From IMG/VR virus record IMGVR_UViG_2585427753_000009: a DNA stretch of 13,562 bases. One strand, written 5' to 3'. Shown in pieces: positions 645 through 13,562 of the stretch. The notes under the pieces are model-generated. The model worked only from the letters and a program-made list of their open reading frames with translations. It did not search any database and was not told the DNA's origin. The position numbers were made by a program, and so were the translations under genes. How positions within the stretch are numbered: position 1 is the stretch's first letter; each line of letters starts with the position of its first letter. This stretch comes from a virus. Taxonomy: Duplodnaviria; Heunggongvirae; Uroviricota; Caudoviricetes.

Positions 645-1217
645 TTACATTTCAGGTCGCGTTATGACAGTCCCAACAGGGTGGTAGCGGTAGATCGTTG
701 ACAGTCCAATATCATAGATAATTGCCAGCCGCTTTCTGTCATACCCTTTCTGGAGCAATCTTGCGATCTGCTCATGCTGCTCCTTCGTCAGTTTCGGGCG
801 ACGTCCTCCAACTCTCCCTTGTGCTCGCGCAGCAGCCAGTCCTGCCAGCGTGCGCTCAACTATCAGTTCACGCTCCATTTCTGCCAGTGCACCCATCATA
901 TGAAAAAAGAACCTTCCCATCGGAGTGCTGGTATCGATTGAATCCGTCAGACTGCGAAAATTGACACCTTTTGCGCGTAGCTCTTCTGTGAGAGCAATGA
1001 GGTGTTTCATTCTTCTACCCAACCGATCCAGCTTCCAGACCACCAATGTATCCCCTCTTTTAAGGCACTTTAAAGCGCGTTTCAGGCCTGGTCGTTCCGA
1101 CTTGGTTCCGCTCATTTTGTCCTCAAAAATCTGTTCACATCCTGCGCACATTAATGCATTGCGTTGCAAATCTGTGTTTTGGTCATTTGTTGACACACGT
1201 ATGTAGCCAATCAGCAT
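645..1217 (-). CDS. Serine DNA invertase (Hin/Gin/Pin/Cin family), copy 1
   Basis: Translation MLIGYIRVSTNDQNTDLQRNAL...VVWKLDRLGRRMKHL...GRRPKLTKEQHEQIARLLQKGYDRKRLAIIYDIGLSTIYRY has the N-terminal catalytic serine motif (YIRVSTNDQ) and a C-terminal helix-turn-helix like Hin/Gin. The ORF-track start at 1346 is a read-through extension; the real start is ATG at 1217, preceded by AAGGGAG with 7-nt spacing. Confidence 0.9.
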   Translation of the reverse strand: MLIGYIRVSTNDQNTDLQRNALMCAGCEQIFEDKMSGTKSERPGLKRALKCLKRGDTLVVWKLDRLGRRMKHLIALTEELRAKGVNFRSLTDSIDTSTPMGRFFFHMMGALAEMERELIVERTLAGLAAARAQGRVGGRRPKLTKEQHEQIARLLQKGYDRKRLAIIYDIGLSTIYRYHPVGTVITRPEM

Positions 1218-1271
1218 TAAAAATACTCCCTTTTGAGTGGTTAAAGTACTGAGATAATGTGGGGAGGATTT

Positions 1272-1297
1272 GAGAGATAAACGTTGGTTTGGGGGAA
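1272..1297 (+). other. Candidate hix/gix-like crossover site A (core AAACGTTGGTTT at 1279-1290)
   Basis: AAAC-N4-GTTT core resembling the hix/gix AAACC-NN-GGTTT pattern, about 60 bp upstream of invertase copy 1 and at the exact start of the sequence shared by all three fiber cassettes. The same core recurs in inverted orientation at 2894-2905 and 3366-3377. Confidence 0.55.
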
Positions 1298-1452
1298 GGC
1301 TCTGCATTGCCTGTTGGTGTACCGGTTCCGTGGCCCACCGCCACACCGCCAGAAGGCTGGTTAAAGTGCGACGGGCGCGCCTTTACAAAAGAACAATATC
1401 CTGTTCTGGCCAGAGCCTACCCGACCCTCCGTCTTCCCGATTTACGCGGTGA
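1279..1452 (+). repeat. 174-bp inverted repeat, arm A (perfect match to complement of 3204-3377)
   Basis: By-eye comparison: 1279-1452 equals the reverse complement of 3204-3377 with no mismatch; the first mismatch is at 1453 versus 3203. Encodes the conserved N-terminal 'collar' part of the cassettes. Confidence 0.8.
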
Positions 1453-1801
1453 GTTTATCCGTGGATGGGACGACGGGCGCAAAGTTGATACAGGACGTAA
1501 GTTGCTGTCCGCACAAGGGGCAACGCTGTTAAGAACAGCAATGCTGGATTATTATAACCAGGACACTACGGGAACCTCGGGGATAGTCGGCATGGGATTC
1601 AACAATGAAGATTCCATTACAGACCTTCGTGAGGGCAGCTTTAAAATGCCGGACGGGACAACATTCAGCGATCCTGTCGTGGCAATGTCAGACAATGGTA
1701 TGCAGGCTACTATTCTGACCTCTATCAGAAGCGGGTATGCGAAGGGTATCACTGTCAGACCCCGTAGCATTGCACTTAATTACATTGTGAGGGCAGTTTA
1801 A
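1289..1801 (+). CDS. Tail fiber C-terminal variable cassette A (no start codon; frame open from 1274)
   Basis: Translation (NVGL)GEGSALPVGVPVPWPTATPPEGWLKCDG...PDLRGEFIRGWDDGR...NYIVRAV: the conserved junction segment shared by P2 H, Mu S and P1 S fibers plus a tail-collar-like motif. The only in-frame start is TTG; an in-frame stop lies at 1271-1273, so it needs fusion to an upstream constant region. Its stop overlaps the start of the downstream tfa (TAATG). Confidence 0.8.
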   Translation: MGEGSALPVGVPVPWPTATPPEGWLKCDGRAFTKEQYPVLARAYPTLRLPDLRGEFIRGWDDGRKVDTGRKLLSAQGATLLRTAMLDYYNQDTTGTSGIVGMGFNNEDSITDLREGSFKMPDGTTFSDPVVAMSDNGMQATILTSIRSGYAKGITVRPRSIALNYIVRAV

Positions 1802-2415
1802 TGAGTAACACTGCAGTTCTGGATGAAAACGGTATCGCCACTGTAGCGGGCGATATCACTGTATATCACTATGACGAGGAAACCCGGGAATACACCTCAT
1901 CCTCTGTGGAGTATCTCGCCCTTGGGGTGGGTACTCCGGCACATTCGTGCGCCGATGCACCGCCGGAGGCAATTTCGGGTTACGTGGTTTGCCGGACTGC
2001 CACGCTGAACGGGTGGGAGCATGTGCCTGATCACCGCGGCGAGACGGTATACAGCACGGAGAACGGTAACCCTGTTCTGATTACCCAACCGGGTGATTAC
2101 CCGGCGGACACCACCACAAAACAGCCAGCCACGCCATGGGATACCTGGAACGGTGAGGCGTGGGTAACCGATACTGAACGGCAGCGAGCCGCAGAACTGG
2201 AGGTTGCCAGACAGCAACGCCAGCAACGGGTGAAACAGGCGATGGCGTCCGTCGATCTTATCAACCTCAAACTGCGTGCTGGTCGCAGTCTGACACCAGA
2301 AGAAACGGCAAAACTGAACGCCGTGCTGGATTATATCGACGAGCTGAACGCACTGGATATCAGCACGGCACCTGAAATCAGCTGGCCGGAAGCGCCACTG
2401 GCACTTGCCAGTTGA
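1801..2415 (+). CDS. Tail fiber assembly protein (Tfa; Mu U / P2 G family)
   Basis: 204 aa with VYHYDEETREY, HRGETVYSTENG, WNGEAWVTD and C-terminal APEISWPEAP motifs typical of caudoviral Tfa chaperones. Translationally coupled to cassette A. Confidence 0.85.
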   Translation: MSNTAVLDENGIATVAGDITVYHYDEETREYTSSSVEYLALGVGTPAHSCADAPPEAISGYVVCRTATLNGWEHVPDHRGETVYSTENGNPVLITQPGDYPADTTTKQPATPWDTWNGEAWVTDTERQRAAELEVARQQRQQRVKQAMASVDLINLKLRAGRSLTPEETAKLNAVLDYIDELNALDISTAPEISWPEAPLALAS

Positions 2416-2421
2416 ACGGTA

Positions 2422-2895
2422 TCACGCCGCCCTCACGATATAGTTAAACGCGATATTGCGGGGGCGGGTTATGTTAAAGAATGCTCCGTTTAATTCGGCT
2501 TTTGCGCGACTGTTTGTTCCACCCAGTATTGCGTACCACAAATAATCGCTACGGTAATTCCCCGCAAACACCTTATCGCCGCCATAGTCAATATTATTTC
2601 CGTTACTCATGTACGAGATATCAAGCGCAGAATCGTTATCGTCATGACCGCCGACCAGTGTACCTTTCTGCCATGAAAGCAACTTACGCCCCTCGTCAAT
2701 CTTGCGCCCGTCGTCCCATCCACGGATAAACTCACCGCGTAAATCGGGAAGACGGAGGGTCGGGTAGACTCTGGCCAGAACAGGATATTGTTCTTTGGTG
2801 AACGTAGCTCCGTTGCACTGTAACCAGCCTGCTGGCGGTGTGGCGGTGGGCCATGGAACCGGTACACCAACAGGCAATGCAGAGCCTTCCCCCAA
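2422..2895 (-). CDS. Tail fiber C-terminal variable cassette B (no start codon)
   Basis: GEGSALPVGVPVPWPTATPPAGWLQCNG...PDLRGEFIRGWDDGRKIDEG...NYIVRAA: same conserved N-terminal segment, divergent C-terminal domain. Begins at crossover site B, converges on tfa with a 6-nt gap, and has no tfa of its own. Confidence 0.75.
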   Translation of the reverse strand: MGEGSALPVGVPVPWPTATPPAGWLQCNGATFTKEQYPVLARVYPTLRLPDLRGEFIRGWDDGRKIDEGRKLLSWQKGTLVGGHDDNDSALDISYMSNGNNIDYGGDKVFAGNYRSDYLWYAILGGTNSRAKAELNGAFFNITRPRNIAFNYIVRAA

Positions 2896-2905
2896 ACCAA
2901 CGTTT
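2690..2905 (-). repeat. Cassette B copy of the conserved junction repeat (imperfect, mosaic relative to A and C)
   Basis: Reverse complement matches arm A for the first ~50 nt from the AAACGTTGG core, then diverges and matches again near GATTTACGCGGTGAGTTTATCCGTGGATGGGACGACGGGCGC. Confidence 0.6.
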
Positions 2906-2912
2906 TTATGCC
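2887..2912 (-). other. Candidate crossover site B (core at 2894-2905)
   Basis: Reverse complement AAACGTTGGTTTGGGGGAAGG. The stop codon of cassette C (2906-2908) sits inside this site, so cassettes C and B are in tandem. Confidence 0.5.
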
Positions 2913-3424
2913 GCCCTTACGATATAATTAAAGGCAATATTACGAGGACGGTTTTCATTAGCTGTTGGCACGACACGAGAGGCGTCGAATCCAAGGTCAT
3001 CGGTTTTGTCTATAGTAGTTGTGTTATTCGGCATTCTCGCTGATCGTGTTCCTGCATCGTAAAAAGCCCCTCTGATTGCATCAAAAGACATACCGATCCC
3101 GCCATCTGCGAATCCCTCAATATTTCTTATTGCATCCCCCTGTGAAGATAATAATTGTCGCCCGGCATCCACACCACGTCCGTCATCCCAGCCACGAATA
3201 AATTCACCGCGTAAATCGGGAAGACGGAGGGTCGGGTAGGCTCTGGCCAGAACAGGATATTGTTCTTTTGTAAAGGCGCGCCCGTCGCACTTTAACCAGC
3301 CTTCTGGCGGTGTGGCGGTGGGCCACGGAACCGGTACACCAACAGGCAATGCAGAGCCTTCCCCCAAACCAACGTTTTCGTTTTTATCCCTACCTATACC
3401 AACTCTGTATTTTTCACGAAACAA
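2906..3424 (-). CDS. Tail fiber C-terminal variable cassette C (no ATG; conserved part begins at about 3385)
   Basis: ...KNENVGLGEGSALPVGVPVPWPTATPPEGWLKCDGRAFTKEQYPVLARAYPTLRLPDLRGEFIRGWDDGRGVDAG...NYIVRAA. Its first ~57 codons are identical at DNA level to cassette A (inverted), then it diverges. The ORF-track start is a TTG within the invertase-2 upstream region. Confidence 0.75.
   Translation of the reverse strand: MFREKYRVGIGRDKNENVGLGEGSALPVGVPVPWPTATPPEGWLKCDGRAFTKEQYPVLARAYPTLRLPDLRGEFIRGWDDGRGVDAGRQLLSSQGDAIRNIEGFADGGIGMSFDAIRGAFYDAGTRSARMPNNTTTIDKTDDLGFDASRVVPTANENRPRNIAFNYIVRAA
3204..3377 (-). repeat. 174-bp inverted repeat, arm C (perfect match to complement of 1279-1452)
   Basis: See arm A. 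Confidence 0.8.
3359..3384 (-). other. Candidate crossover site C (core at 3366-3377)
   Basis: Reverse complement CGAAAACGTTGGTTTGGGGGAAGG, about 55 bp upstream of invertase copy 2; mirrors the site A / invertase 1 arrangement. Confidence 0.55.
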
Positions 3425-3438
3425 AGAGGATGTTTTTT

Positions 3439-4038
3439 ATGCAAATTGGCTATATTCGTGTGTCAACAAACGACCAGAACACGGATTTACAACGCAATGC
3501 ACTGAACTGCGCAGGATGTGAACTGATTTTTGAAGATAAAATCAGCGGAACGAAATCAACCAGACCGGGATTGAAAAAACTGCTCAGAACGCTATCAGAA
3601 GGAGATACGCTGGTTGTCTGGAAGCTGGACAGACTGGGCAGAAGTATGAAACACCTGATCACGCTTATTGAGGAATTGCGGGAAAAAGGTGTTAATTTCC
3701 GTAGTCTGACGGACAGCATTGACACGTCAACACCCATGGGGCGTTTCTTTTTTCACGTCATGGGGGCTTTAGCCGAAATGGAACGTGAATTAATTGTAGA
3801 GCGTACACTGGCCGGGCTGGCAGCAGCACGCGCACAAGGACGCATTGGCGGACGTCGCCCGAAGTTGACAAAAGAACAACACGAGCAAATAGCGAGGCTG
3901 ATTAAAAACGGTCATGACAGGAAACAACTGGCGATCATTTACGACATCGGCATATCGACGATTTATCGTTATCACCCTGTAGGCGATATACAGGCTGAAG
4001 AAACAACCAGACAGACTCAGGAAAATGAAAACCGCTAA
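3439..4038 (+). CDS. Serine DNA invertase (Hin/Gin/Pin/Cin family), copy 2
   Basis: MQIGYIRVSTNDQNTDLQRNALNCAGCELIFEDK...GRRPKLTKEQHEQIARLIKNGHDRKQLAIIYDIGISTIYRY. Start ATG at 3439 follows AGAGGA with 8-nt spacing; the ORF-track start at 3310 is a read-through extension. Closely similar to copy 1 but with a distinct, longer C-terminal tail. Confidence 0.9.
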   Translation: MQIGYIRVSTNDQNTDLQRNALNCAGCELIFEDKISGTKSTRPGLKKLLRTLSEGDTLVVWKLDRLGRSMKHLITLIEELREKGVNFRSLTDSIDTSTPMGRFFFHVMGALAEMERELIVERTLAGLAAARAQGRIGGRRPKLTKEQHEQIARLIKNGHDRKQLAIIYDIGISTIYRYHPVGDIQAEETTRQTQENENR

Positions 4039-4057
4039 TCTGACCATTAGCGGTTTT
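4031..4057. terminator. Bidirectional intrinsic terminator between convergent invertase 2 and gene U
   Basis: Perfect 9-bp stem ACCGCTAAT / ATTAGCGGT with 6-nt loop, followed by TTTT on the + strand and by a T-rich tract on the - strand. Confidence 0.5.
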
Positions 4058-4064
4058 GCGTTAA

Positions 4065-4559
4065 TCAAAACAGCCCTTTAACGGAGCTGGCCGCGCTGTT
4101 AAGAGATGATGTCACTTTATCTTTGAAGCCGGACAGCATATCGCTGAACGATGAGGATTGCAGGCGCTCCCGCAAATCCTCATCACAGCGTTCAAGAGTC
4201 AGTGAAAATTCTATCTTTTTCGCCTTACCATAGCGATCAAACTCGGAACGGGTCGTATTCGTTTCAGTCAGTACATACATGCCGTAAATCTGCCCGACAC
4301 CATCAATCAGAGGCCAGGGGCGTCCTGTATATGCCTGCGTGGTCAGCAACGAAAGCGACACTTCGCCACCTGTAATTTCAGGATAAAGCACGCCGGAAAG
4401 CACAATGCGATCATCACCTGCGCCGATATACTGCCAGCCTGCTGAACGGTTAACGCGTTCATTTTTCACATGCCGCCAGCTTTTGTTTTGCTGTAACTGC
4501 TGATGCGGCAGCGTGCGCAGCTCAAAAACAAACATGCCGTAGATCATCATCATGGCCAT
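4065..4559 (-). CDS. P2 gpU-like tail protein
   Basis: MAMMMIYGMFVFELRTLPHQQ...GVLYPEITGG...RPWPLIDGVGQIYGMYVL resembles P2 gpU as I recall it, and the gene sits directly after the tape measure gene. The true start is probably the third ATG (4553), which has proper GAGGAG spacing. Confidence 0.7.
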   Translation of the reverse strand: MAMMMIYGMFVFELRTLPHQQLQQNKSWRHVKNERVNRSAGWQYIGAGDDRIVLSGVLYPEITGGEVSLSLLTTQAYTGRPWPLIDGVGQIYGMYVLTETNTTRSEFDRYGKAKKIEFSLTLERCDEDLRERLQSSSFSDMLSGFKDKVTSSLNSAASSVKGLF

Positions 4560-4565
4560 GACTCC

Positions 4566-7382
4566 TCAATCTTTATCGTAAAAACTGCCACGCCCGGCAC
4601 GGGCGCGCCGTTCCATTTCTGCCCTAACCATTTCACCGACCAGTTTCGCCAGTTCGCGGGGATTCTGTGTAACAATGTTATGCAGATGAACATGAATTTC
4701 ACCGCCAAATCCGGAGGCAACAGGCTCCCGGTTACGGGAAGTTGCAGGAGCTGATGCCACTGGCGATCGTATGGCCTCCGCCACCGGGCGGGAGCTGGCC
4801 GCAACAACAGGGACCAGCGCCGGAGGCAGCGGAGCCGGAACCACGGGTGTGATATTAATTGCGGGGGCAGGCTTACTGACCTGCGCAATCTTCCGCTCCT
4901 GCCACTCCCCACGAACAGCAAGTGCGCGGGGCAGGTTCTTAAAGACAATATCGCCGGGGCCAATGCGTTTTTTCGTCTCATCAACCAGCTTACCTGTGTT
5001 ATCAGCAATTTTGCTGAGTCTGCGCAGCGTCCCGGTATTGCTGTCTGTGAGCGGTTTGTTGTCTTTGGGTTTATCACCTCCGGTGCCATTGCCATTTTCC
5101 ACAGGCTTCGGCGGATTGATTTTCGCCAGGTCCCCCTGAAGTAAGGCAACCTTGTCCTGAAGAATGGCCGCACGCTGTGCGTCTTCGATTTTCTTGCGCG
5201 CCCTTTCCGCTTCATCCGGAAGGACGCCAAGTTTTTCAAGTATCCACGCCAGCGTATCCAGTAGCATTTTTGCAGGTGTCAGAACAAGTTGTAACGCACC
5301 GCCAAGAACGTTACCGAATATCTCGCCAGCACTGGTACATTTATCCAGCGTTTCCTTGCTGGACTCCATCGGTGACAACAGCGATTTAAACCAGTTAAAC
5401 ACCTGGCTGATCCCGCTTCCGATTGCGTCAAAAACAGGACCAAACCGTTCAAAGGTTTCGCGCAACGGGGTCAGCCTTTCCATAATCCCGCTGAACACCC
5501 CGGCAAAAAATGCCCTGATGGGATCCCAGTATTTCCAGATGAGAACGGCAGCTCCGGCAAGCGCAGCCACGATAAGACCGACCGGACTGAACAACGCCCC
5601 GATAGCGCCCCCCAGTAACGAAACGGAACCCGTCACCATTCCCCATAGTGCTGGCAGGAGTCTGACAGCATTCATTGAACCGGTCAGGAGGGAAAAGCCA
5701 AGACGCAGTTTTGCCAGCGGGCCAGCAAGCACACCAATAGCCAGCGACAACGAGCCAACCGTTGCAGTCATTGCCAGCAACGCACCGCCTGCTATCAGTA
5801 GCTGGCGCGTCAGTACCGGATGGGCCTGCGCCAGCGAGGTGATTTTTTCAAGCACCCGCGTGAGCCACTGCGTGACAGAACGCAGCGGACCGTCAACCAG
5901 ATCACTGATGCGAATACGAAGACCTTCCCATGCGCTGTCGAGATTTTTCAGGTCCCCATCAAGATTATCGGCCATTACTTTTGCGACGCGATCGGCCTCT
6001 CCCCTTGCCCCCTGCAATTCTCTGGTCAGTTTTTGCAGCTCTCCTGAACCAGCCGCAGCAACAAGCGTCTGCAAACCAACGAACGCCTCTTCTCCGGCGA
6101 TGTCCTTGAAGAAGGAAACCTGGTCCACCTGTCCGTATTTTTGTGTCGCCTTATAGAGATCAAGCAGCACATCCTCCATCGGGCGCATTTTGCCTCTGGC
6201 GTCAGCAACTGACACCCCCAGCTCTTTCAGCGCATCAGCCGCAGCTTTTGGCGGTGATGCAAGGCGGGACAGACTTGCGCGCATGGCCGTACCAGCATCG
6301 CTTCCACGAAGACCATTATTGGCAAGCATCCCGGCCATGGCCGCCGCTTCTTCAAGACTGATACCAAGTTTTGCGGCAACCGGACCGGTATACTTCATGG
6401 TTTCGCCCAGCGCGCGTAAATCAGTATTGGTCCGGGTGAATGCCGCTGTCAGCGTATCGCCAACCCGGTCCATTTGATCGGCTGTCAGGTTGAACTGTGT
6501 GAGGATATTGGAGCCTATATCCGCCGTCTCGCCGAGTTCGACGCCACCTGCCAGCGCCATATTAAGAACACCGGGCAATGCGGCCTGAATGGCCTGCGGA
6601 GTAAAACCAGCCATTGCCAGAAAGCTCTGCCCACTGGCGGCATCACTCGCAGTAAACTGTGTTTCAGAGCCAAGTTTTAACGCCTGCTCACGCAGCGCCT
6701 TAAACTGCGGGCTGTTTTTGTCGATTCGCGTCAGTGCCTGAACGCGGGACATCTCTTTGCCGAACCCGATCGCAGGCTGCAAAAAACGCCCGGCAGCATA
6801 GCCGCCCGCCGCTGCCGCACCAATTGCCAGCGCACCACCTGTTTTCAGTTTTCCCGCGGTTTCCTGCGCGCGCGAATACCGCTCACGCGCCCGCGTTACA
6901 CGCGCAAGCGCCTGCCGTTCGCGTTCAAGCTGGTTGTTGTACTGTTCGGTGCGTCTGATGGCCTGCTGGATGGTGTTATCGCTGCCTGTCAGGGAAATGC
7001 CGTGGCGTTTCAGCTCTCCGCCAAGCTCCCGCATTTTCTGAATTTCCCGTGTGCGCGATTCATTCAGGCGTTCAAGCCGGGTGCTTAACTGCTGCATCAG
7101 CTTTTGTTGTTTTTCGCTGAGCACTGTACCCGTGCGTTGTAACTGATTAAGGGCGTTAAGCTGGCGTCGTGCTTTCACGATACCCGCATCCGCTTTACTG
7201 ACAGCGTCGCGGGCGCGCTCAAATGATCGCGCCTGACGCTCGAGATTTTTGATCGCCCCCTGCGTTCGCTGGATGGAGTCACCAAACTGCCCCATCAGGC
7301 GGCGGGCGTTTTCGGCAGGCCGGGTCAGCCTGTCAACGGCGCTGAAAGCGACCCGGATATCAAGAGTCTTCATTGTCTGCAT
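4566..7382 (-). CDS. Tail tape measure protein (P2 gpT-like)
   Basis: 938-aa ORF with long coiled-coil-type N-terminal region, central Gly/Ala-rich hydrophobic stretches and a Pro/Ala-rich C-terminal part, lying between the E/E' chaperone and U. Internal ORFs on both strands are alternate-frame artefacts. Confidence 0.85.
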   Translation of the reverse strand: MQTMKTLDIRVAFSAVDRLTRPAENARRLMGQFGDSIQRTQGAIKNLERQARSFERARDAVSKADAGIVKARRQLNALNQLQRTGTVLSEKQQKLMQQLSTRLERLNESRTREIQKMRELGGELKRHGISLTGSDNTIQQAIRRTEQYNNQLERERQALARVTRARERYSRAQETAGKLKTGGALAIGAAAAGGYAAGRFLQPAIGFGKEMSRVQALTRIDKNSPQFKALREQALKLGSETQFTASDAASGQSFLAMAGFTPQAIQAALPGVLNMALAGGVELGETADIGSNILTQFNLTADQMDRVGDTLTAAFTRTNTDLRALGETMKYTGPVAAKLGISLEEAAAMAGMLANNGLRGSDAGTAMRASLSRLASPPKAAADALKELGVSVADARGKMRPMEDVLLDLYKATQKYGQVDQVSFFKDIAGEEAFVGLQTLVAAAGSGELQKLTRELQGARGEADRVAKVMADNLDGDLKNLDSAWEGLRIRISDLVDGPLRSVTQWLTRVLEKITSLAQAHPVLTRQLLIAGGALLAMTATVGSLSLAIGVLAGPLAKLRLGFSLLTGSMNAVRLLPALWGMVTGSVSLLGGAIGALFSPVGLIVAALAGAAVLIWKYWDPIRAFFAGVFSGIMERLTPLRETFERFGPVFDAIGSGISQVFNWFKSLLSPMESSKETLDKCTSAGEIFGNVLGGALQLVLTPAKMLLDTLAWILEKLGVLPDEAERARKKIEDAQRAAILQDKVALLQGDLAKINPPKPVENGNGTGGDKPKDNKPLTDSNTGTLRRLSKIADNTGKLVDETKKRIGPGDIVFKNLPRALAVRGEWQERKIAQVSKPAPAINITPVVPAPLPPALVPVVAASSRPVAEAIRSPVASAPATSRNREPVASGFGGEIHVHLHNIVTQNPRELAKLVGEMVRAEMERRARAGRGSFYDKD

Positions 7383-7628
7383 TCCCGCTGCGAAGTGCCG
7401 CCCGCTCGCGCCAGCTAACCACTTCGCCGGGCGTCATCATGAAGATTTCGGCGGGCGACCAGTTAAAAATGGCGGCAATATCCGCCACCAGATCTTCGAT
7501 GTGCTCAAAGCACACCAGGGTGATTACGCTGCCGTCTCCTGCACGCTCTTCGCGCCAGAGTCTGGCTCGCTCATAAAATTTACAGCCACAGCGCACAACC
7601 GAATAAAATCGCGTGACGACATTTTTTT
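7360..7628 (-). CDS. E' extension: -1 frame continuation of E, predicted to be made as an E+E' fusion by frameshift
   Basis: The -1 frame opens at the A7 run (minus-strand TTAAAAAAATG, + coordinates 7621-7630) where a TAA in that frame overlaps the run, stays open to 7360 and overlaps the tape measure start. This is the arrangement of P2 E/E' and lambda G/GT. Confidence 0.5.
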
Positions 7629-7898
7629 AATCATCACTTCATCCAGTCGTGGCGAGGTCACGCGAGGCAACAGCGTGAACATGGTATCCGCTTTCAGATT
7701 CAGCACATCAGACAGCGACAGACCACGCAGGGATCCCGCCTGCTCAATAGCCCCGGTGATCTCCACATATGTGATTTTTTCGCCACCACGCTCAATTGGC
7801 CGGGAAAGTTTTACACCACGTTCGACAGCCATATCCTCACCTGCCGTCACATCATCCGCTACGGTGTTATTCCGGGTTTCAGTATCGATATCTTTCAT
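7524..7898 (-). CDS. Tail assembly chaperone (P2 gpE-like)
   Basis: 124-aa ORF immediately upstream of the tape measure gene, with a strong RBS (AAGGAG, 7-nt spacer) and an A7 slippery run in its 3' part. Confidence 0.65.
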   Translation of the reverse strand: MKDIDTETRNNTVADDVTAGEDMAVERGVKLSRPIERGGEKITYVEITGAIEQAGSLRGLSLSDVLNLKADTMFTLLPRVTSPRLDEVMIKKMSSRDFIRLCAVAVNFMSEPDSGAKSVQETAA

Positions 7899-7953
7899 CA
7901 GTTGTCTCCTTTTCAGTCAGAGGCGACGCACTGCGCCGCCTGCATATTACTTA

Positions 7954-8466
7954 TCAGCCAAGCCCAAGCGCGGAACGAATGCGGTCAGGCACAATGTCCT
8001 TGCCGTCCTTCCGGTAGATGTGGTTCAACAGGTCGATTTCCAACAGCGGGCGATCGTTAACGCTCAGCTTGTAGTAGGTGTTTTTGACAGCGTAAGTGTG
8101 TGATGTGGCTTCGCCCTGTTTGGCCTCCCCCATATCAATTTCCGTCACACGCCCGCGCATCTCGATTTCATACAGATCGCTTTCTGCATCGGTGTAGTAT
8201 TCACCCGCAAAACGCAGCAGCGTGCCGTCAATCGTGCCGCCATATTTAAGGAACAGCGCACGAACAGCTCCCCCCATAACAAAACTCGCATCAAGCGCGG
8301 AGTCGTCCAGACCGAGATCAATACTTACCGCCCCCATCATGCCACCACCACGATAGCTGTCGGTTTTGCGCGTCAGTTTGGGCGGCGTGACGGACGTCAC
8401 CTTACCCACTTCGTTTTCACCATCCACAAACAGCGTAAAAAAGCGAAGATGTTTTGGTACAGCCAT
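7954..8466 (-). CDS. Tail tube protein (P2 FII-like)
   Basis: 170 aa with KVTSVTPPKLTRKTDSYRGGGMMGAVSIDLGLDD, matching the P2 FII tube motif as I recall it (KLTRK...YRGxGM...DLGLDD). Start overlaps the sheath stop (ATGA). Confidence 0.85.
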   Translation of the reverse strand: MAVPKHLRFFTLFVDGENEVGKVTSVTPPKLTRKTDSYRGGGMMGAVSIDLGLDDSALDASFVMGGAVRALFLKYGGTIDGTLLRFAGEYYTDAESDLYEIEMRGRVTEIDMGEAKQGEATSHTYAVKNTYYKLSVNDRPLLEIDLLNHIYRKDGKDIVPDRIRSALGLG

Positions 8467-9650
8467 CAGGCACCTCCCAGCACCGCAAATGCGGGACCAA
8501 AGAATTCATCAGTAAACGACTGGTAAAGCTCCATGTCTTCCAGCGGGGGAACAGGCGTATATTTGTAGCGAATACGCACGCGCCCCTGACGTAAATTCGT
8601 GGTGCCGTTATCCACCACGTCATACCAGCACGACGCCCCAATCAGTTTCCCGGCAGTAACCAGTGAATCCAGTTTTGCCCTGATGGCACTGATAACATCT
8701 TTCACGTTCGCAGGCGTCAGTGGACTGTCGATGGTTTCAAACTGCGCTTCCGCAATTGAATCAGCCAGCACCTGTGCGGTTCGGGTATACACCTCAAAGA
8801 TGTAGGCGTTCGTTTCCGGTGTGCGGTTGCCCCAGAAGCGGAACCCGTTGCGACGAATAATGGTCGTGATTTCTTTGTTGTTGAGGCTATTGGCATCGCT
8901 GTCTTCGGCCTGCAACGACCAGAACACATGCCTGGACATCCCCAGCACATTTTTAACCGGAACGTTGGACAGTGATTTGTGCCATCCCTGCTCATGGTCA
9001 ATGTACGCACGAAGGCCGCACGCATAGGCAGGCGCGGGGAACGTTTCGTTTTTGCCACTTTTCGGGTTGTAGGCGATGAAGTCCGGCCATAAGAGCATCA
9101 CCTCACGTTCGTTGAATTTCTGGCGGTAGGTAATCGCCTCAGCCATCGTGTTACAGCCGTGACATGAGGCATACACAAACGCGCGCAGTTTACCCGCAAT
9201 CACGCACAGGGATTTTGTCACCGCCTCCGTGTCCAGCTCCGGCGCGGCCAGAATACGCGGACGGTATCCGATGCTTTCATCCTGCTCTGCAACAAGCAGC
9301 GCATACATCCCCGTATAGCTGCCGTCAGATTCAGAACCACCGATAACCAGTTGATCCTGCGTCTTTCCGTCTTCTTCTTTGTGTTCAGCCACGCGAACGA
9401 CGATCACCTTTGTGCTCACCTGGTCTGCGATGGCCTTAAGCGCACGATAAAGCGTCCCCGTTGTCCCGCATTTTCCCAGCACGTCATTGACGCGGGTCAG
9501 CAGTGTGGGCTTGTTCAGCGGGAACAGCTTCGCGTCCGCATCATCCGCCGTTGCCACGATACCGATAACGCTGGAATCAACATCGTTAATCGCTGTTACC
9601 AGGTCGGTATTTTCCGTAACACGGGCACCATGAAAACGAGTTTCACTCAT
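8466..9650 (-). CDS. Contractile tail sheath protein (P2 FI-like)
   Basis: 394 aa with FPLNKP, KLRAFVYASCHGC, LLWPDF, GWHKSLSNV, LIRRNGFRFWGNRT, YTRTAQVLAD and YTPVPPLED motifs characteristic of the P2 FI sheath family. Confidence 0.88.
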   Translation of the reverse strand: MSETRFHGARVTENTDLVTAINDVDSSVIGIVATADDADAKLFPLNKPTLLTRVNDVLGKCGTTGTLYRALKAIADQVSTKVIVVRVAEHKEEDGKTQDQLVIGGSESDGSYTGMYALLVAEQDESIGYRPRILAAPELDTEAVTKSLCVIAGKLRAFVYASCHGCNTMAEAITYRQKFNEREVMLLWPDFIAYNPKSGKNETFPAPAYACGLRAYIDHEQGWHKSLSNVPVKNVLGMSRHVFWSLQAEDSDANSLNNKEITTIIRRNGFRFWGNRTPETNAYIFEVYTRTAQVLADSIAEAQFETIDSPLTPANVKDVISAIRAKLDSLVTAGKLIGASCWYDVVDNGTTNLRQGRVRIRYKYTPVPPLEDMELYQSFTDEFFGPAFAVLGGA

Positions 9651-9807
9651 AGCTTTAGCCCCTTGTATCCGTTAAATGATTCGGCAACAATCATCACCCA
9701 CCACGCGCGTAATCTCACCCCTGTGCCGTTCTCCCGATCCGGCGACAACAAAAAGCAGTAACCCCCTCCGCACGCACATGCGACCATGCCGCACAGGGAG
9801 GGAACAG

Positions 9808-10917
9808 ATGACCGATACCACCATGCAATTGCTCAGTCAGGGCACAGACCCCGTGAAAATGCCGGATTTTGATATTCTCGCGGAGGGTAAAACGCTGTCA
9901 GGCGTGGCAGAGCGCCTGATGAGCCTGTCACTGACCGACAACCGGGGATTTGACGCGGACCAGCTCACCATCACGCTGGATGATGCGGATTGTCAGTTGC
10001 AGCTACCGCCACGGGGCGCGCGCCTGACGGTTCTCATTGGCTGGAAAGGAGAACCGCTGACAGAAAAAGGCACTTACATTGTTGATGAAATCGCTCACGA
10101 AGGACCGCCGGACAGGCTGACTGTTTCAGCCAGAAGCGCAGATTTTCGGGATGAATTTAACGTTAAACGTGAGGTGTCCTGGCATGATGTGACCGTTGAG
10201 CGTGTGGTATCCGCCATCGCTCATCGGTATGGTCTGAAACCGCAAATCAGCGAAATGCTGATGGATATCGAAATCGACCACGCCGACCAGACCGAAGAAA
10301 GCGACATGTCCTTCCTTACGCGCATGGCGGAAATGCTGGGCGCAATCACCACGGTAAAAAGCGGTAATCTGTTATTCATTATGCCAGGCGGTGGCGTGAA
10401 CGCACAGGGCCAGCCGTTGCCATCGTTCGCCATCACGCGCAGCAGTGGCGATCGCCATCAGTTCCGCATTGCTGACCGCGAAGCGTATACGGGGGTACGC
10501 GCTTACTGGCTTGATCTTAATTACGGGAAAAAGAAAAAAGTCAGCGTGAAACACCGCAAACCGCCAAAACCCAAAAAGGAGAAAAGCAGCAGCCGTGAAG
10601 GTGATTATATGGAAGGCGCGGAAGGCAATGTGTTTGTGTTACGCAAGACTTATCAGAACGAGCAGGCAGCAAGACGCGCAGCGGCGGCAAAGTGGCAGCA
10701 GCTACAACGCGGAGCCGCATCATTCTCCATCACGCTGGCATGTGGTCGTGCAGAACTCTACCCCGAAATGCATGGCACGGTAACAGGATTTAAAAGCGAG
10801 ATTGATAATCAGGACTGGATTATTGCAAAAGCCGAGCACACCATCGATAACAGCGGCTTTACCACGCAGCTTGAGCTTGAGGCAAAAATCTCGGAATGGA
10901 TAGCAGAAACAGAGTGA
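9808..10917 (+). CDS. P2 gpD-like tail protein (late control gene D family)
   Basis: Start at ATG 9808 after AGGGAGG. N-terminus LSLTDNRGFDADQLTITLDD...RGARLTVLIGWKGEPLTEKGTYIVDEI matches the gpD-family pattern; sits immediately upstream of the Ogr-like gene as in P2. Contains an unusual Lys-rich low-complexity insert. Confidence 0.72.
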   Translation: MTDTTMQLLSQGTDPVKMPDFDILAEGKTLSGVAERLMSLSLTDNRGFDADQLTITLDDADCQLQLPPRGARLTVLIGWKGEPLTEKGTYIVDEIAHEGPPDRLTVSARSADFRDEFNVKREVSWHDVTVERVVSAIAHRYGLKPQISEMLMDIEIDHADQTEESDMSFLTRMAEMLGAITTVKSGNLLFIMPGGGVNAQGQPLPSFAITRSSGDRHQFRIADREAYTGVRAYWLDLNYGKKKKVSVKHRKPPKPKKEKSSSREGDYMEGAEGNVFVLRKTYQNEQAARRAAAAKWQQLQRGAASFSITLACGRAELYPEMHGTVTGFKSEIDNQDWIIAKAEHTIDNSGFTTQLELEAKISEWIAETE

Positions 10918-10959
10918 GCAACTTAGAATAGCAGCAGCACCACGTTAAGGGAGGTCGCT

Positions 10960-11220
10960 ATGTTCCGTTGTCCGCTTTGTGGCGCATCTGCCCGTATCCG
11001 CACCAGTCGTCCGGAAAATGATTCAAACACCGTGCGGCAAAAGTATTACCAGTGTAACAACCTGGAATGCGGCGTATGCTTCTCAACACTGGAAGCTTTC
11101 CATAAATTCACATCAAAACACACCTCCGGCGTTCACTCTTCAGAAGGTATCCCGTGGCATGAGCTGCCAGCTTCACACAGGGGAAACAATCAGATGAGTT
11201 TGCCTTTACCTCAGAATTAA
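10960..11220 (+). CDS. ogr: Ogr/Delta-family zinc-finger late transcription activator
   Basis: MFRCPLCGASARIRTSRPENDSNTVRQKYYQCNNLECGVCFSTLEAFHKF... has the Cys-x2-Cys ... Cys-x4-Cys zinc finger and the MF-CPLC / RTSR / Y-QC-N signature of P2 Ogr. Strong RBS AAGGGAGG. Confidence 0.85.
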   Translation: MFRCPLCGASARIRTSRPENDSNTVRQKYYQCNNLECGVCFSTLEAFHKFTSKHTSGVHSSEGIPWHELPASHRGNNQMSLPLPQN

Positions 11221-11411
11221 CAGGCAGAATTGCCGGAGTAACAAAAAAGCGATAGATTACGCGCGGGTGCCTTTCGGCTGATGGTCGGAGGGAATACCCG
11301 AAGGCCAGATGTGGAAAGGCCCCGGAAAACATTTCTGTTTAACCGAGGCCCTAACATATCTACCTTAAGCAAGTGATAGGTTAGCGCCTCTCCAACAAAG
11401 GAGCAAGCGCT

Positions 11412-11552
11412 ATGTCGCAAAAATCGCTTACGGCCATCACATTCTGCGTGACGGTAATCCTCATCATCTGGATGCTACACGGTTCGCTGTGTGAAATACG
11501 GATGAGCTTCTGGGGAGCGGAGTTTGCGGCGTTCTTACAGTGTAAGCAGTAA
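11412..11552 (+). CDS. Hok-family type I toxin (46 aa); not in the ORF track because it is under 60 aa
   Basis: MSQKSLTAITFCVTVILIIWMLHGSLCEIRMSFWGAEFAAFLQCKQ: N-terminal transmembrane helix, the Hok hallmark S-L-C-E-[IL]-R motif and a conserved C-terminal AAFLxCK, closest to HokA as I recall it. AAGGAG RBS with 8-nt spacing; long structured leader upstream; hairpin and terminator downstream. Confidence 0.7.
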   Translation: MSQKSLTAITFCVTVILIIWMLHGSLCEIRMSFWGAEFAAFLQCKQ

Positions 11553-11640
11553 GGAAACCGCGACGGGGGAGCAATCCCCCGTCAATCGGTTGCTAAGGTT
11601 GGCTGAAGTGGCACCCTATCTCACAGACATGAACAACAAA

Positions 11641-11672
11641 CCCGCAGCGTAAGAACTGCGGGTTTTCTTTTT
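11641..11672. terminator. Intrinsic terminator after the hok-like gene (probably bidirectional, also serving the small minus-strand ORF)
   Basis: CCCGCAG-(8 nt loop)-CTGCGGG followed by TTTTCTTTTT on the + strand; the complement is followed by TTTGTTGTT. A second perfect 9-bp hairpin (GACGGGGGA...TCCCCCGTC) lies at about 11569-11590, reminiscent of the hok mRNA 3' fold-back element. Confidence 0.6.
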
Positions 11673-11740
11673 GGAACTATCACTAGCTAGTGTACCGTTA
11701 ACGGCACATAATGCTCGCACAACAAACCTGTTAAAAGAGA

Positions 11741-12022
11741 TTACTCAGCATTCTCCTGCTTCCATTGCCGGATCATTTCATCGGTAACATCACCCTCATA
11801 ACATACCACGTCATACCCTCCATTACGGCTATATGCACTGCGTCCACCACATCTACTACCATTCCTTGCATGATTATAAGGACACGCACAATTGCCTGGA
11901 TAAGATTCAATGGATTCTTTAATTATTTCTTTTTTGATCTGAGCATCAGACTTTCCTGTTGCTGCATATCCGCTAAAAGATACTAAACAAAGGCAGATTG
12001 CCATTAATAAACCACATCGCAT
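11741..12022 (-). CDS. Small secreted Cys-rich protein of unknown function (about 93 aa with signal peptide)
   Basis: From the internal ATG (12022): MRCGLLMAICLCLVSFSGYA|ATGKSDAQIKK... has a canonical signal peptide and four Cys in the mature part. AT-rich. The 131-aa ORF-track version has a non-credible N-terminal extension; exact start is uncertain because the RBS is weak. Confidence 0.5.
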   Translation of the reverse strand: MRCGLLMAICLCLVSFSGYAATGKSDAQIKKEIIKESIESYPGNCACPYNHARNGSRCGGRSAYSRNGGYDVVCYEGDVTDEMIRQWKQENAE

Positions 12023-12259
12023 ACCGATACACTCTATTACTAACCAATCATAGCCCACATCATAAAATCGAGATGAGGAGTACAATACCTTTAACAAGAA
12101 GGTGTCATAACGATAATATGTCGTGCAATTCATCAAAAAAAAGATCTATATCAAAGAGATAGAACTCTTATCAGTGCTTCAGACATCGGCATTCGAGGCA
12201 GCAGAAAAACAGTAAATCTGACGAATTTGCCTTTTCCCAAGATGTTGTCAGATTAAAAA

Positions 12260-12420
12260 GATAGATTAGCGCAGGTACCTGTTGGTGGATTGCAGGAGGA
12301 AAAATGAAGTCGAGTGGAAAAATCCCAGAAAAATTTTTGTTTAACAGAGGTCCTGGTTCACTATGCGAAATACGGAGGAGCTGCAGAAGAATTCTGCTTC
12401 ATCCTTAGAGTTTAAACAGC
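12260..12420 (+). pseudogene. Degraded second hok-like locus (leader retained, toxin ORF internally deleted and frameshifted)
   Basis: 12260-12357 aligns by eye with the leader of the intact locus (11251-11348), e.g. GATAGATTA..., GGAAA..CC..GAAAA..TTT.TGTTTAAC.GAGG.CC. 12358-12378 GGTTCACTATGCGAAATACGG then matches the toxin's GGTTCGCTGTGTGAAATACGG (codons for GSLCEIR), but the RBS, start codon and transmembrane-helix codons are missing and the remainder is out of frame. Confidence 0.45.
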
Positions 12421-12492
12421 ACGTGCACTACCATTGTTTCTGCATATCGCCACACCATCGCCACTCAACCGCCATTGCACAAAATACAAATA

Positions 12493-12519
12493 CAAAAAAA
12501 CCACCCGAAGGTGGTTTCA
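12493..12519 (-). terminator. Intrinsic terminator of the glyW-cysT-leuZ tRNA operon
   Basis: Minus-strand AAACCACC-TTCG-GGTGGTTT followed by TTTTTTTG, about 40 nt past the tRNA-Leu 3' end. Confidence 0.7.
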
Positions 12520-12559
12520 CGACACTGCTTATTGCTTTGATTTTATTCTTATCTTTCCC

Positions 12560-12646
12560 ATGGTACCCGGAGCGGGACTTGAACCCGCACAGCGCGAACG
12601 CCGAGGGATTTTAAATCCCTTGTGTCTACCGATTCCACCATCCGGG
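12560..12646 (-). tRNA. leuZ: tRNA-Leu (anticodon UAA)
   Basis: Reverse complement reads GCCCGGATGGTGGAATCGGTAGACACAAGGGATTTAAAATCCC...GGGTTCAAGTCCCGCTCCGGGTACCA: 87 nt, long variable arm, encoded CCA. Confidence 0.93.
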
Positions 12647-12658
12647 CTCGGGAAGAAA

Positions 12659-12732
12659 GTGGAGGCGCGTTCCGGAGTCGAACCGGACTAGACGGATTTG
12701 CAATCCGCTACATAACCGCTTTGTTAACGCGC
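12659..12732 (-). tRNA. cysT: tRNA-Cys (anticodon GCA)
   Basis: Reverse complement GGCGCGTTAACAAAGCGGTTATGTAGCGGATTGCAAATCCGTCTAGTCCGGTTCGACTCCGGAACGCGCCTCCA, 74 nt. Confidence 0.93.
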
Positions 12733-12786
12733 CAAATTCTTCAGGCCTTTCAGCCAGACATCCGCTGCCGCCGATGTCTTTTAAAC

Positions 12787-12862
<76 letters not shown>

Positions 12863-13013
12863 ATTCATCAAGCAATCAGTTAATCACTTGATTTTATTAT
12901 CGTCTGGCAATCAGTGCCGCCGTTCGATGCGTTGCATTCTACTTACCTGGCGCGATGAGTCAACGATATTTTTCACCACTTTTGATCGTTTGCTGAAAAT
13001 TGCGCCGAAACGA

Positions 13014-13562
13014 TCACTGATCAAGCAAATCTGCACGCGCAGCGCTCAAATATTGCAACATTGACCACAGAGTCAGTACCGCAGCCACAAAGAAAAGTGC
13101 AATACCGGCGTACTCAACCCAAATGTTCGGACGCCACAGCAGCCAGGCTAACGCCACCATCTGGGCAGTGGTTTTCACTTTCCCAATCCAGGAGACAGCC
13201 ACGCTACTGCGTTTACCCAACTCCGCCATCCATTCGCGTAGCGCAGAAATAATAATTTCACGGGCGATCATCGTTGCTGCCGGTAAGGTCACCCACCAGC
13301 TGTGGTAATGCTCGGTTACCAGCACCATGGCGATAGCCACGAGAACTTTATCTGCGACAGGGTCAAGGAAAGCACCAAACCGGGTACTCTGATTCCAGCG
13401 GCGTGCCAGAAAACCATCGAACCAGTCAGTCACCGCCGCGACGCAGAAAATGAGCGCGGCGGCAAACGGCGACCAGGTGACAGGCAAATAAAAGACCAAT
13501 ACAAAGAATGGGATAAGGATGACACGGAACAGTGTAAGCAACGTAGGGATATTAAATTGCAT
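13014..13562 (-). CDS. pgsA: CDP-diacylglycerol--glycerol-3-phosphate 3-phosphatidyltransferase (phosphatidylglycerophosphate synthase)
   Basis: Complete 182-aa [75 protein letters not shown]..., with the CDP-alcohol phosphatidyltransferase motif D-x2-DG-x2-AR; matches E. coli PgsA as I recall it, in the expected position next to glyW-cysT-leuZ. Confidence 0.95.

Follow-up and report, generated by a model that had tools for sequence, protein, structure and literature searches.

In the annotated record of phage P2 (NC_001895; Peduovirus), the genes FI, FII, E/E', T, U, D and ogr are co-oriented, with D as the last gene of the F operon (FI-FII-E/E'-T-U-D), overlapping U, and with ogr next, an order that the preliminary description of the DNA studied here had given correctly. 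The same colinear order is found in phiCTX, Mannheimia phage 587AP1 and Burkholderia phage phiE12-2. The late-promoter consensus of P2 is TGT-N12-ACA (PMC3931495). The activator site of the P2 P/O region (3057-3087, centre 3071.5) lies 55.5 bp from the starts at 3016 and 3127, with one dyad midway between the two divergent late promoters, and in P2 this bidirectional design serves the capsid and terminase operons only. In P88 (NC_026014; Xuanwuvirus P88) and its genus mates, the order is invertase, U-T-E'/E-FII-FI on the opposite strand, D, ogr and hok. Plaque formation has been described for P88, which mitomycin C induces (PMC5285337), for phiSM, which also lysogenises and is spontaneously released (PMC6456863), and for SEN4 and SEN5, which are produced spontaneously (PMC5261728). 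A search of the literature on the inverted tail block found no paper commenting on this layout.

Gene content of the window

The window, by which the whole stretch of 13,562 nucleotides is meant, contains the right-hand portion of a P2-family prophage of the P88-like type (Xuanwuvirus), only the right third of this phage genome being included, with a tail-gene order that is normal for its lineage. The layout found is that of Xuanwuvirus, namely invertase or other cargo, U to FI on the opposite strand, D-ogr-hok and a right end at the attachment site, and host DNA in the K-12 orientation resumes at 12492, adjoining leuZ. The Peduovirus order, a single operon FI-FII-E-T-U-D with all genes in one orientation and U directly beside D, was not found in the window. 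The window is also a junction of a chromosomal inversion of ~180 kb between two prophages, and its tail-fibre cassette is fused to the end of the second prophage. Pfam searches identified a complete contractile tail module of the P2 family (Peduoviridae), consisting of FI, FII, E/E', T, U, D and an Ogr/Delta activator, and confirmed the placement of FI to U on the minus strand (4065-9650) and of D and ogr on the plus strand that had been proposed from the sequence. The features are as follows.

3310-4038, plus strand: open reading frame of the invertase ('invertase 2' of the preliminary description), with Resolvase and HTH_7 domains
4028-4057, no strand: shared hairpin, resembling a bidirectional terminator, on which the invertase and U converge
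4065-4559, minus strand: U, tail protein (Phage_P2_GpU, E=8e-39)
4566-7382, minus strand: T, tape measure protein of 938 aa (PhageMin_Tail, E=2e-56)
7360-7581 (also delimited as 7363-7575), minus strand: E' extension in the -1 frame (Phage_P2_GpE, E=3e-12)
7524-7898, minus strand: E, tail assembly chaperone (Phage_TAC_7, E=7e-5, under the Pfam cutoff)
7954-8466, minus strand: FII, tail tube protein (Phage_tube, E=7e-46)
8466-9650, minus strand: FI, tail sheath protein (three sheath domains)
9651-9807, no strand: candidate divergent control region of FI and D, 157 bp (sequence, and an architecture conserved in 32 of 35 representative relatives)
9690-9695, minus strand: predicted -10 element of the FI-operon late promoter, GATGAT, with a predicted start near 9683
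9730-9747, no strand: candidate Ogr-type activator dyad TCT-N12-ACA (TCTCCCGATCCGGCGACA), centre 9738.5, from motif conservation
9779-9787, plus strand: predicted extended -10 element of the D promoter, TG-c-GACCAT, with a predicted start near 9794
9808-10917, plus strand: D, baseplate hub and late control protein of 369 aa (Phage_GPD)
10960-11220, plus strand: ogr, late activator with an Ogr/Delta-type zinc finger (Ogr_Delta, E=5e-14)

The gene set is orthologous to that of P2, with protein identities by BLASTP of 50% for D (over nearly the full length), 46% for U, 45% for FI and 42% for Ogr, and P2 shares an Ogr-type activator and, by prediction, the E/E' frameshift chaperone arrangement and late promoter sites of the TGT-N12-ACA type. 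The window differs from P2 in that FI-U is inverted and in that D has a predicted upstream control region of its own. The tape measure gene T was found to be intact, as had been claimed, with an open frame over its whole length. The hairpin on which U and the invertase converge, as had been described, was located at 4028-4057; its 12-bp stem stands between an A-run and a T-run, and its free energy is -16.9 kcal/mol (z-score -4.3) for the plus strand and -15.7 kcal/mol (z-score -3.5) for the minus strand. The identity of E is backed by its position and by homologues in P88 and RefSeq genomes, and the -1 frame of E' is open as far as the TGA at 7362-7360. From the sequence we infer a frameshift from E to E', with the A_AAT_TTT heptamer at 7581-7575 as the candidate slippery site (AAATTTT in the window, TTTTTTG in P2). 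Aligned to P2 Ogr, the Ogr protein has cysteines C4, C7, C32 and C37, so that the four-cysteine zinc finger is present; compared with the pattern C-X2-C-X22-C-X4-C, the middle spacing is X24 rather than X22 because of a two-residue insertion.

Two gene starts needed attention. The GTG at 3310 opens the invertase open reading frame, but the true start is probably 3439; both a 600-nt RefSeq homologue and the alignment with P88 gp43 start at 3439-3445. The D frame is also open from 9676, but D most likely starts at the ATG at 9808, which is preceded by GGGAGGG and which is the start that the preliminary description had assumed in letting FI and D diverge from the 157-bp spacer. A mis-start of gene D recurs in RefSeq and is flagged by the present analysis.

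Distribution and origin of the inverted block

The gene-order comparison with P2-like phages and prophages revealed that the same divergent order is widespread. Positions 3445-11670 of the window are colinear, in one or two pieces, with 500465-2, phiSM, P884B11, P88, 520873, 503458, PhiR44_2 and Chuche, with 92-95% nucleotide identity, and the annotated maps of P88 and phiSM have an order identical to that of the window. The FI/D spacer of P88 and its genus mates has the same 157 bp as that of the window, whereas, to the left of the invertase, they have a tail-fibre cassette unlike that of the window. The P88 record lacks an annotation of ogr, but its DNA is present, with 98% protein identity, and in practically every related locus D is followed by an ogr homologue. 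An intact FI/D junction was found in 1357 of 5426 complete E. coli genomes, with at most 22 further genomes having partial junction matches. When D-containing loci were sampled from one genome per species, 57 of the 80, representing ~25 Enterobacterales genera, had the inverted layout, and the other 23 had the P2 layout. The inverted layout was also found in SEN5 (Senquatrovirus) and in Klebsiella phage Kp4871-3 (Reginaelenavirus); in SEN4/SEN5 and the Klebsiella Reginaelenavirus, FI-U is inverted relative to D-ogr and a TGT-N12-ACA dyad lies as far from the FI start as the dyad of the window does, although D is only 62-71% identical to that of the window. The divergent layout is already present in public genomes, in sequenced, classified and viable P88-like, SEN4-like and related phages.

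Two readings of the divergence had been offered, a natural layout of the lineage and a precise flip of the FI-U operon in the present genome. The first stands, with the intact, plaque-forming P2-like phages P88, phiSM and SEN4/SEN5 all sharing the divergent FI/D arrangement, and the second is effectively refuted. A recent flip by the adjacent serine invertase, or through short inverted repeats at the borders, would convert the P2-type order into the present one; the invertase gene adjoins the block, and the window does carry a genuine large rearrangement involving invertible segments. However, the inverted repeats suggested for the borders were looked for and no repeat pairs 4039-4064 with 9651-9807. 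Crossover sites of the invertase (AAACCAACGTTT core) are limited to 1279-1290, 2894-2905 and 3366-3377, such pix-like sites being confined to the tail-fibre cassette, and none was found at the borders of the FI-U block, where even the best match differs at 12-13 of 26 positions, a background level. The slot adjoining U is a cargo hot spot occupied by an invertase, an acetyltransferase or a macro-domain protein, and the layout is kept where other cargo replaces the invertase. It is identical in relatives that have no invertase at all, namely SEN5, in which U converges directly on the tail-fibre assembly gene, and the O157:H7 and O84:H7 prophages. Together with the occurrence of the same layout throughout the E. 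coli genomes and the loci of other species counted above, these observations leave a recent flip with hardly any credibility.

The inverted loci form a single cluster for each of D, FI and U (by UPGMA on p-distances, not a rooted likelihood tree), which fits a single ancient inversion. It could be argued instead that a foreign FI-U cassette from another myovirus recombined backwards into an ancestor, as phage genomes are mosaic and the slot beside U readily takes up cargo. Such a replacement is improbable, however: FI, U and D have diverged from P2 to about the same extent, the pairwise distances of D track those of FI and U across 73 loci (r=0.90-0.92), and all three genes yield the same partition into inverted and colinear loci. 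The layout is almost certainly typical of the lineage and ancient rather than a rearrangement of the present genome. FI-FII-E/E'-T-U would have been inverted once relative to D-ogr in the ancestor of an Enterobacterales phage clade comprising Xuanwuvirus, Senquatrovirus, Reginaelenavirus and many uncharacterised prophages, and the arrangement would have been inherited vertically since then. The neighbouring invertase does not act on the FI-U block.

The FI/D spacer

The pattern T[GC]T-N12-ACA was found in 32 of 35 spacers, where shuffled sequences would give 2.2, and its distance from the FI start is fixed; the other three lack the strict pattern, and 31 of the 32 loci that have it have a single copy. 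The left half-site in the window is TCT, which deviates from the TGT of the P2 consensus. In the P88 genome, the dyad followed by ACAACAAAAG (TCT-N12-ACAACA(AAAG)) occurs only in the FI/D spacer and in the divergent P/O region, so that the P/O region of P88 itself has the same motif. A TGT-N20-ACA element (9664 and 9722) was considered as the conserved element and was dropped, since P88 lacks the second copy and the cross-genus alignment shows T[GC]T-N12-ACA.

On both sides of the dyad centre, -10-like hexamers are conserved on opposite strands at a distance of 43.5-48.5 bp (~46 bp). On the FI side, A/T is invariant at -48.5, -47.5 and -44.5 from the centre among 31 distinct loci, and on the D side a G at +41.5, followed by A, A and T at +44.5, +47.5 and +48.5, is conserved. 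These positions put each predicted start at 55.5 bp from the centre of the dyad, and the dyad-to-hexamer spacing is the same as that in the P2 P/O region. A generic scan for sigma-70 promoters and terminators, which did pick out the hairpin, found no significant promoter in the region (five promoters, compared with 4.8 expected from shuffles), a null result that is expected for activator-dependent promoters without a -35 element and that lends the model no positive support.

Because the geometry of the spacer matches that of the P2 P/O late control region, we infer that the 157-bp spacer may well be one bidirectional late control region, in which a single symmetric Ogr-type site would lie ~55 bp from two divergent -35-less promoters. 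The leftward promoter would transcribe FI to U, ending at the hairpin common with the invertase, and the rightward promoter would transcribe D and probably ogr in the same transcript. It is also conceivable, if rather doubtful, that the layout is lineage-typical but that FI and D are controlled independently, by two activator sites or with a constitutive D promoter. Counted from the dyad centre, further blocks are indeed conserved in the spacer at about -20 (CACG) and at about +30 to +38 (a GCGCGCG run). At 9663-9690 the window has a second imperfect palindrome, TTGTATCCG-N10-CGGCAACAA, but this one belongs to the P88 group alone, with no conservation in other genera. Independent control is likewise disfavoured by the presence of one T[GC]T-N12-ACA per spacer in nearly all loci and by the symmetric position of the dyad between the two conserved hexamers. 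Under the shared-dyad model, the P88 clade would differ from P2 in that the tail sheath operon and D appear to be under a second copy of the bidirectional design.

Implications for P2-family phages

In conclusion, the locus is best explained as a whole by an ancient, lineage-typical inversion of FI-U, with bidirectional late control as the less certain part of the explanation, a reading to which we assign a probability of about 0.9. P88-like, SEN4-like and related phages have this layout as their standard map, and its description has little discovery value. The spacer model provides a concrete testable prediction, that of two divergent Ogr-dependent promoters with one common site. With about a quarter of complete E. 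coli genomes having the inverted FI-U/D layout, P2 alone is an unsafe synteny template for judging the intactness of P2-family prophages.

The ancestral inversion may also have had a regulatory consequence, for which a limited literature search found no describing paper and for which the odds are about even: the late promoter of the sheath operon, with its palindromic Ogr site, would have been moved directly upstream of D, creating a second bidirectional region besides P/O and uncoupling D-ogr from the 5.6-kb sheath operon. Owing to its symmetry, the Ogr site could at once activate both leftward and rightward transcription. If this is true, such a relocation of the promoter would explain why the inversion came to be tolerated and later became fixed in a clade of ~25 Enterobacterales genera.

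Orientation of the tail block in the window and in isolated phages

The gene map of the window was derived from the ORF map and Pfam scans and was compared with the annotated P2 record. In P2, FI through D and ogr share one orientation and U abuts D, whereas in the window FI to U lie on the minus strand and D and ogr on the plus strand; both the observation and the difference from P2, as given in the preliminary description, are real.

Features of the tail region (U, T, E, FII, FI and ogr from the ORF map and Pfam)
3439–4038, plus strand: invertase, ORF open from 3310
4028–4057: hairpin with a 12-bp stem, folding well on both strands
4065–4559, minus strand: U
4566–7382, minus strand: T, 938 aa
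7524–7898, minus strand: E
7954–8466, minus strand: FII
8466–9650, minus strand: FI
9808–10917, plus strand: D, ATG at 9808 preceded by GGGAGGG
10960–11220, plus strand: ogr

All of the tail ORFs are intact, as had been noted, and D, FI, U and Ogr are 42–50% identical to their P2 counterparts. The E/E' pair also looks intact, since the −1 frame is open past E to 7360 from a candidate slippery heptamer, A_AAT_TTT, at 7581–7575, and a Phage_P2_GpE domain was found by Pfam in this frame downstream of E. The invertase and U converge on the hairpin at 4028–4057, in agreement with the shared hairpin described earlier. The D frame is open from 9808, and its alignment to P2 D begins at about residue 15. 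In many RefSeq E. coli genomes PGAP starts gene D about 103 codons late (window 9808–10117; for example at 12868 in the compared genome L089), naming the product 'contractile injection system protein, VgrG/Pvc8 family' and adding a spurious hypothetical protein or pseudogene beside it.

The preliminary description had left open whether the FI–U operon had been precisely flipped in this genome or whether this is the natural layout of the lineage, and the gene-order comparison that it proposed was carried out. In a megablast search against isolated phage genomes, window 3445–11670 is colinear, in one or two pieces at 92–95% identity, with eight isolated phages, namely Escherichia phages 500465-2, P884B11, P88, 520873, 503458, PhiR44_2 and Chuche and Citrobacter phage phiSM, which all belong to the genus Xuanwuvirus or lie next to it. 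As annotated, P88 and phiSM run, like the window, from the invertase through U to FI on the opposite strand and then to D. The inverted block is also found in Salmonella phage SEN5, which belongs to another genus, has a D protein 62% identical and lacks an invertase, and in a Klebsiella Reginaelenavirus genome. P88, phiSM and SEN4/5 are viable: P88 produces plaques after induction with mitomycin C (PMC5285337), phiSM is a spontaneously released phage that forms plaques and lysogenizes K-12 (PMC6456863), and SEN4/5 are plaque formers produced spontaneously (PMC5261728). A flip particular to this genome is thus not upheld, as intact, inducible P2-like phages share the FI/D divergence.

The element is assigned to the P88-like group: a P2-family tail module is present, and the departure from the gene order used as a criterion for P2 (Peduovirus) is characteristic of that group. 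Being found in published, classified and experimentally viable phages, the layout is already known, and no paper remarking on the tail-block inversion or on a common FI/D late control site was found in a limited literature search.

Two observations concern phiSM itself. Product names in its GenBank record (L002, OR565851) are shifted by one gene at 11024–13475, so that the sheath gene is labelled 'late control gene D protein' and D is labelled 'ogr'; its virions are siphovirus-like with non-contractile tails according to the 2019 paper (PMC6456863), and the genome nonetheless encodes a sheath and a tube.

Spread and stability of the inverted order

The FI/D junction (9250–10200) is present at a coverage of at least 80% in 1357 of the 5426 complete E. 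coli genomes. At the U-side junction of these genomes variation is limited to the cargo past the U stop codon, which is an invertase in about 620 genomes and a serine O-acetyltransferase gene, with a macro-domain gene further upstream, in the O157:H7 and O84:H7 prophages; the orientation of the block is unchanged in every E. coli case examined. The slot flanked by the tail-fibre assembly gene and the 3' terminus of U (equivalent to window 3439–4064; 8279–8851 in the compared loci L003 and L004) is a cargo hot spot that holds an invertase or a serine O-acetyltransferase depending on the strain and is empty in SEN5. In the serine O-acetyltransferase strains the macro-domain gene is inserted between the tail-fibre gene and its assembly gene.

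One genome per bacterial species was then scanned with a D-protein profile, followed by tblastn with FI, FII, T, U, D and Ogr. Of the 80 loci, 57, from about 25 Enterobacterales genera (including Salmonella, Klebsiella, Photorhabdus, Xenorhabdus, Providencia, Morganella and Yersinia), carry the inverted FI–U block with FI and D diverging over 120–200 bp, and 23 have the P2 order; in practically all of the 80, D is followed by an ogr homologue. The outgroups phiCTX, Mannheimia phage 587AP1 and Burkholderia phage phiE12-2 are colinear, as is P2. Inverted order in viable phages, E. coli genomes and many genera bears out the natural-layout reading. When D, FI and U are each clustered on p-distances, the inverted loci form one cluster that contains no colinear locus, and D distances track FI and U distances (r ~0.9), for which the simplest reading of the sequences is a single ancient inversion with both sides of the breakpoints co-inherited afterwards. 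A contig labelled as the Gram-positive 'Vagococcus sp. WN89Y' (L008, NZ_JBQPOM010000071.1) carries a P88-like tail region 95–99% identical to that of E. coli; a contaminated or wrongly labelled assembly is suspected.

A recent or reversible flip is effectively excluded, because inverted repeats joining the two FI–U borders, for which 4039–4064 was searched against 9651–9807 as had been suggested, were not found, because crossover sites were not found at either border, where the best match has 12–13 mismatches in 26 (background level), and because relatives without any invertase have the same block orientation. The three invertase crossover sites of the window, TTCCCCCAAACCAACGTTT (Pin/Gin-type core; 1279–1290, 2894–2905 and 3366–3377), all lie inside the tail-fibre cassette.

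Chromosomal context of the window

Positions 1–566 are core E. coli DNA (the hxpB–ydjM spacer and the 5' part of ydjM), reversed relative to K-12, and from 567 to about 2950 comes the right end of a second prophage, which encodes an invertase of its own. This prophage end adjoins ydiV, a truncated irp2 or aroA in other strains; these varied flanks suggest insertion at many sites, and the second prophage is probably Mu-like. P88-like prophage sequence begins at 1281 and reaches leuZ–cysT–glyW–pgsA in the K-12 orientation; the cassette 1281–2950 is common to both prophages, at ~99% identity.

Further features of the window
645–1217, minus strand: invertase of the second prophage, ~75% identical to the diverged plus-strand invertase at 3439–4038
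645–4038: multi-cassette tail-fibre shufflon between the two outward-facing invertases, with one assembly gene, three C-terminal cassettes that bear Collar domains, and three sites of the pix-like kind (1279, 2894 and 3366)
11244–11616: Hok/Gef-type toxin locus downstream of ogr, 84.5% identical to a segment of many Stx2-converting lambdoid phages
11700–12490: low-GC segment (~39%), past the point where P88 homology stops (11672) and before host DNA resumes (12492); its likely content is variable cargo of the prophage terminus
11741–12136, minus strand: 131-aa ORF with no significant family match

The constant N-terminal part of the tail-fibre gene is absent from the window. From its sequence, the window looks like one endpoint of a ~180-kb inversion in which two prophages of like orientation would have recombined through their invertible tail-fibre cassettes; the P88-like prophage is accordingly split here, with none of the tail ORFs in the window disrupted. 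The join may instead be an assembly chimera that arose within the 99%-identical cassette (1281–2950). The exact junction is absent from all 5426 complete E. coli genomes; in strain 4/0 a comparable double-invertase junction lies beside aroA, with the inner cassette flipped, and an ST131 preprint describes exchanges between tail-fibre segments of P88-like and phiE255-like prophages.

A predicted late control site between FI and D

As the preliminary description held, FI and D diverge from 9651–9807. The equivalent genes diverge in the inverted relatives as well. The sheath operon no longer ends with D, and D would therefore need a late promoter of its own. The FI/D spacers of 35 representative loci were aligned, and a T[G/C]T-N12-ACA dyad was found in 32, nearly always in a single copy and 75–89 bp from the FI start codon; the strict pattern is missing in three. 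Among 1000 mononucleotide shuffles of the same spacers, a mean of 2.2 and a maximum of 8 spacers matched. The four Ogr-dependent late promoters of P2 have TGT-N12-ACA as their published consensus (PMC3931495).

With the dyad as the common reference point of the spacers, conservation in the flanks is strongest at positions that make up two mirror-image −10-like hexamers, GAnnAT on the minus strand (−48.5 to −43.5 from the dyad centre) and TG-n-nAnnAT on the plus strand (+40.5 to +48.5). Starts placed ~7 nt past the two hexamers are each ~55.5 bp away from the dyad centre, which is the geometry annotated for the shared P/O site of P2 (TGT-N12-CCA at 3063–3080, centre 3071.5, starts at 3016 and 3127). 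Further blocks common to the FI/D spacers (window and compared loci L007–L088) are CACG ~20 bp left of the dyad centre and a GCGCGCG run ~30–38 bp right of it.

Predicted control elements in the window
9730–9747: dyad, left half-site TCT rather than TGT
9690–9695, minus strand: predicted FI −10 hexamer, GATGAT
~9683: predicted FI transcription start, 33-nt leader
9779–9787, plus strand: predicted extended −10 of D, TG-c-GACCAT
~9794: predicted D transcription start, 14-nt leader

In the whole P88 genome TCT-N12-ACAACA occurs twice, in the FI/D spacer and in the divergent P/O spacer only. Together with the conserved dyad, the mirror-image hexamers and the P2 P/O geometry, this leads us to propose two bidirectional late control regions for the P88 clade, one at P/O and one at FI/D, with a single predicted Ogr site in each. 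The FI transcript would end at the hairpin shared with the invertase, and the D transcript probably extends into ogr, 42 bp downstream.

In conclusion, the natural layout is supported and the flip is rejected; the finding is ordinary and of low interest, and the proposal that FI and D share a late control site may be new in a small way. For the ancestral inversion, breakpoints immediately ahead of the sheath promoter and at the U/D boundary would have brought the palindromic activator site beside D, which could be the reason that the rearrangement was viable from the start.
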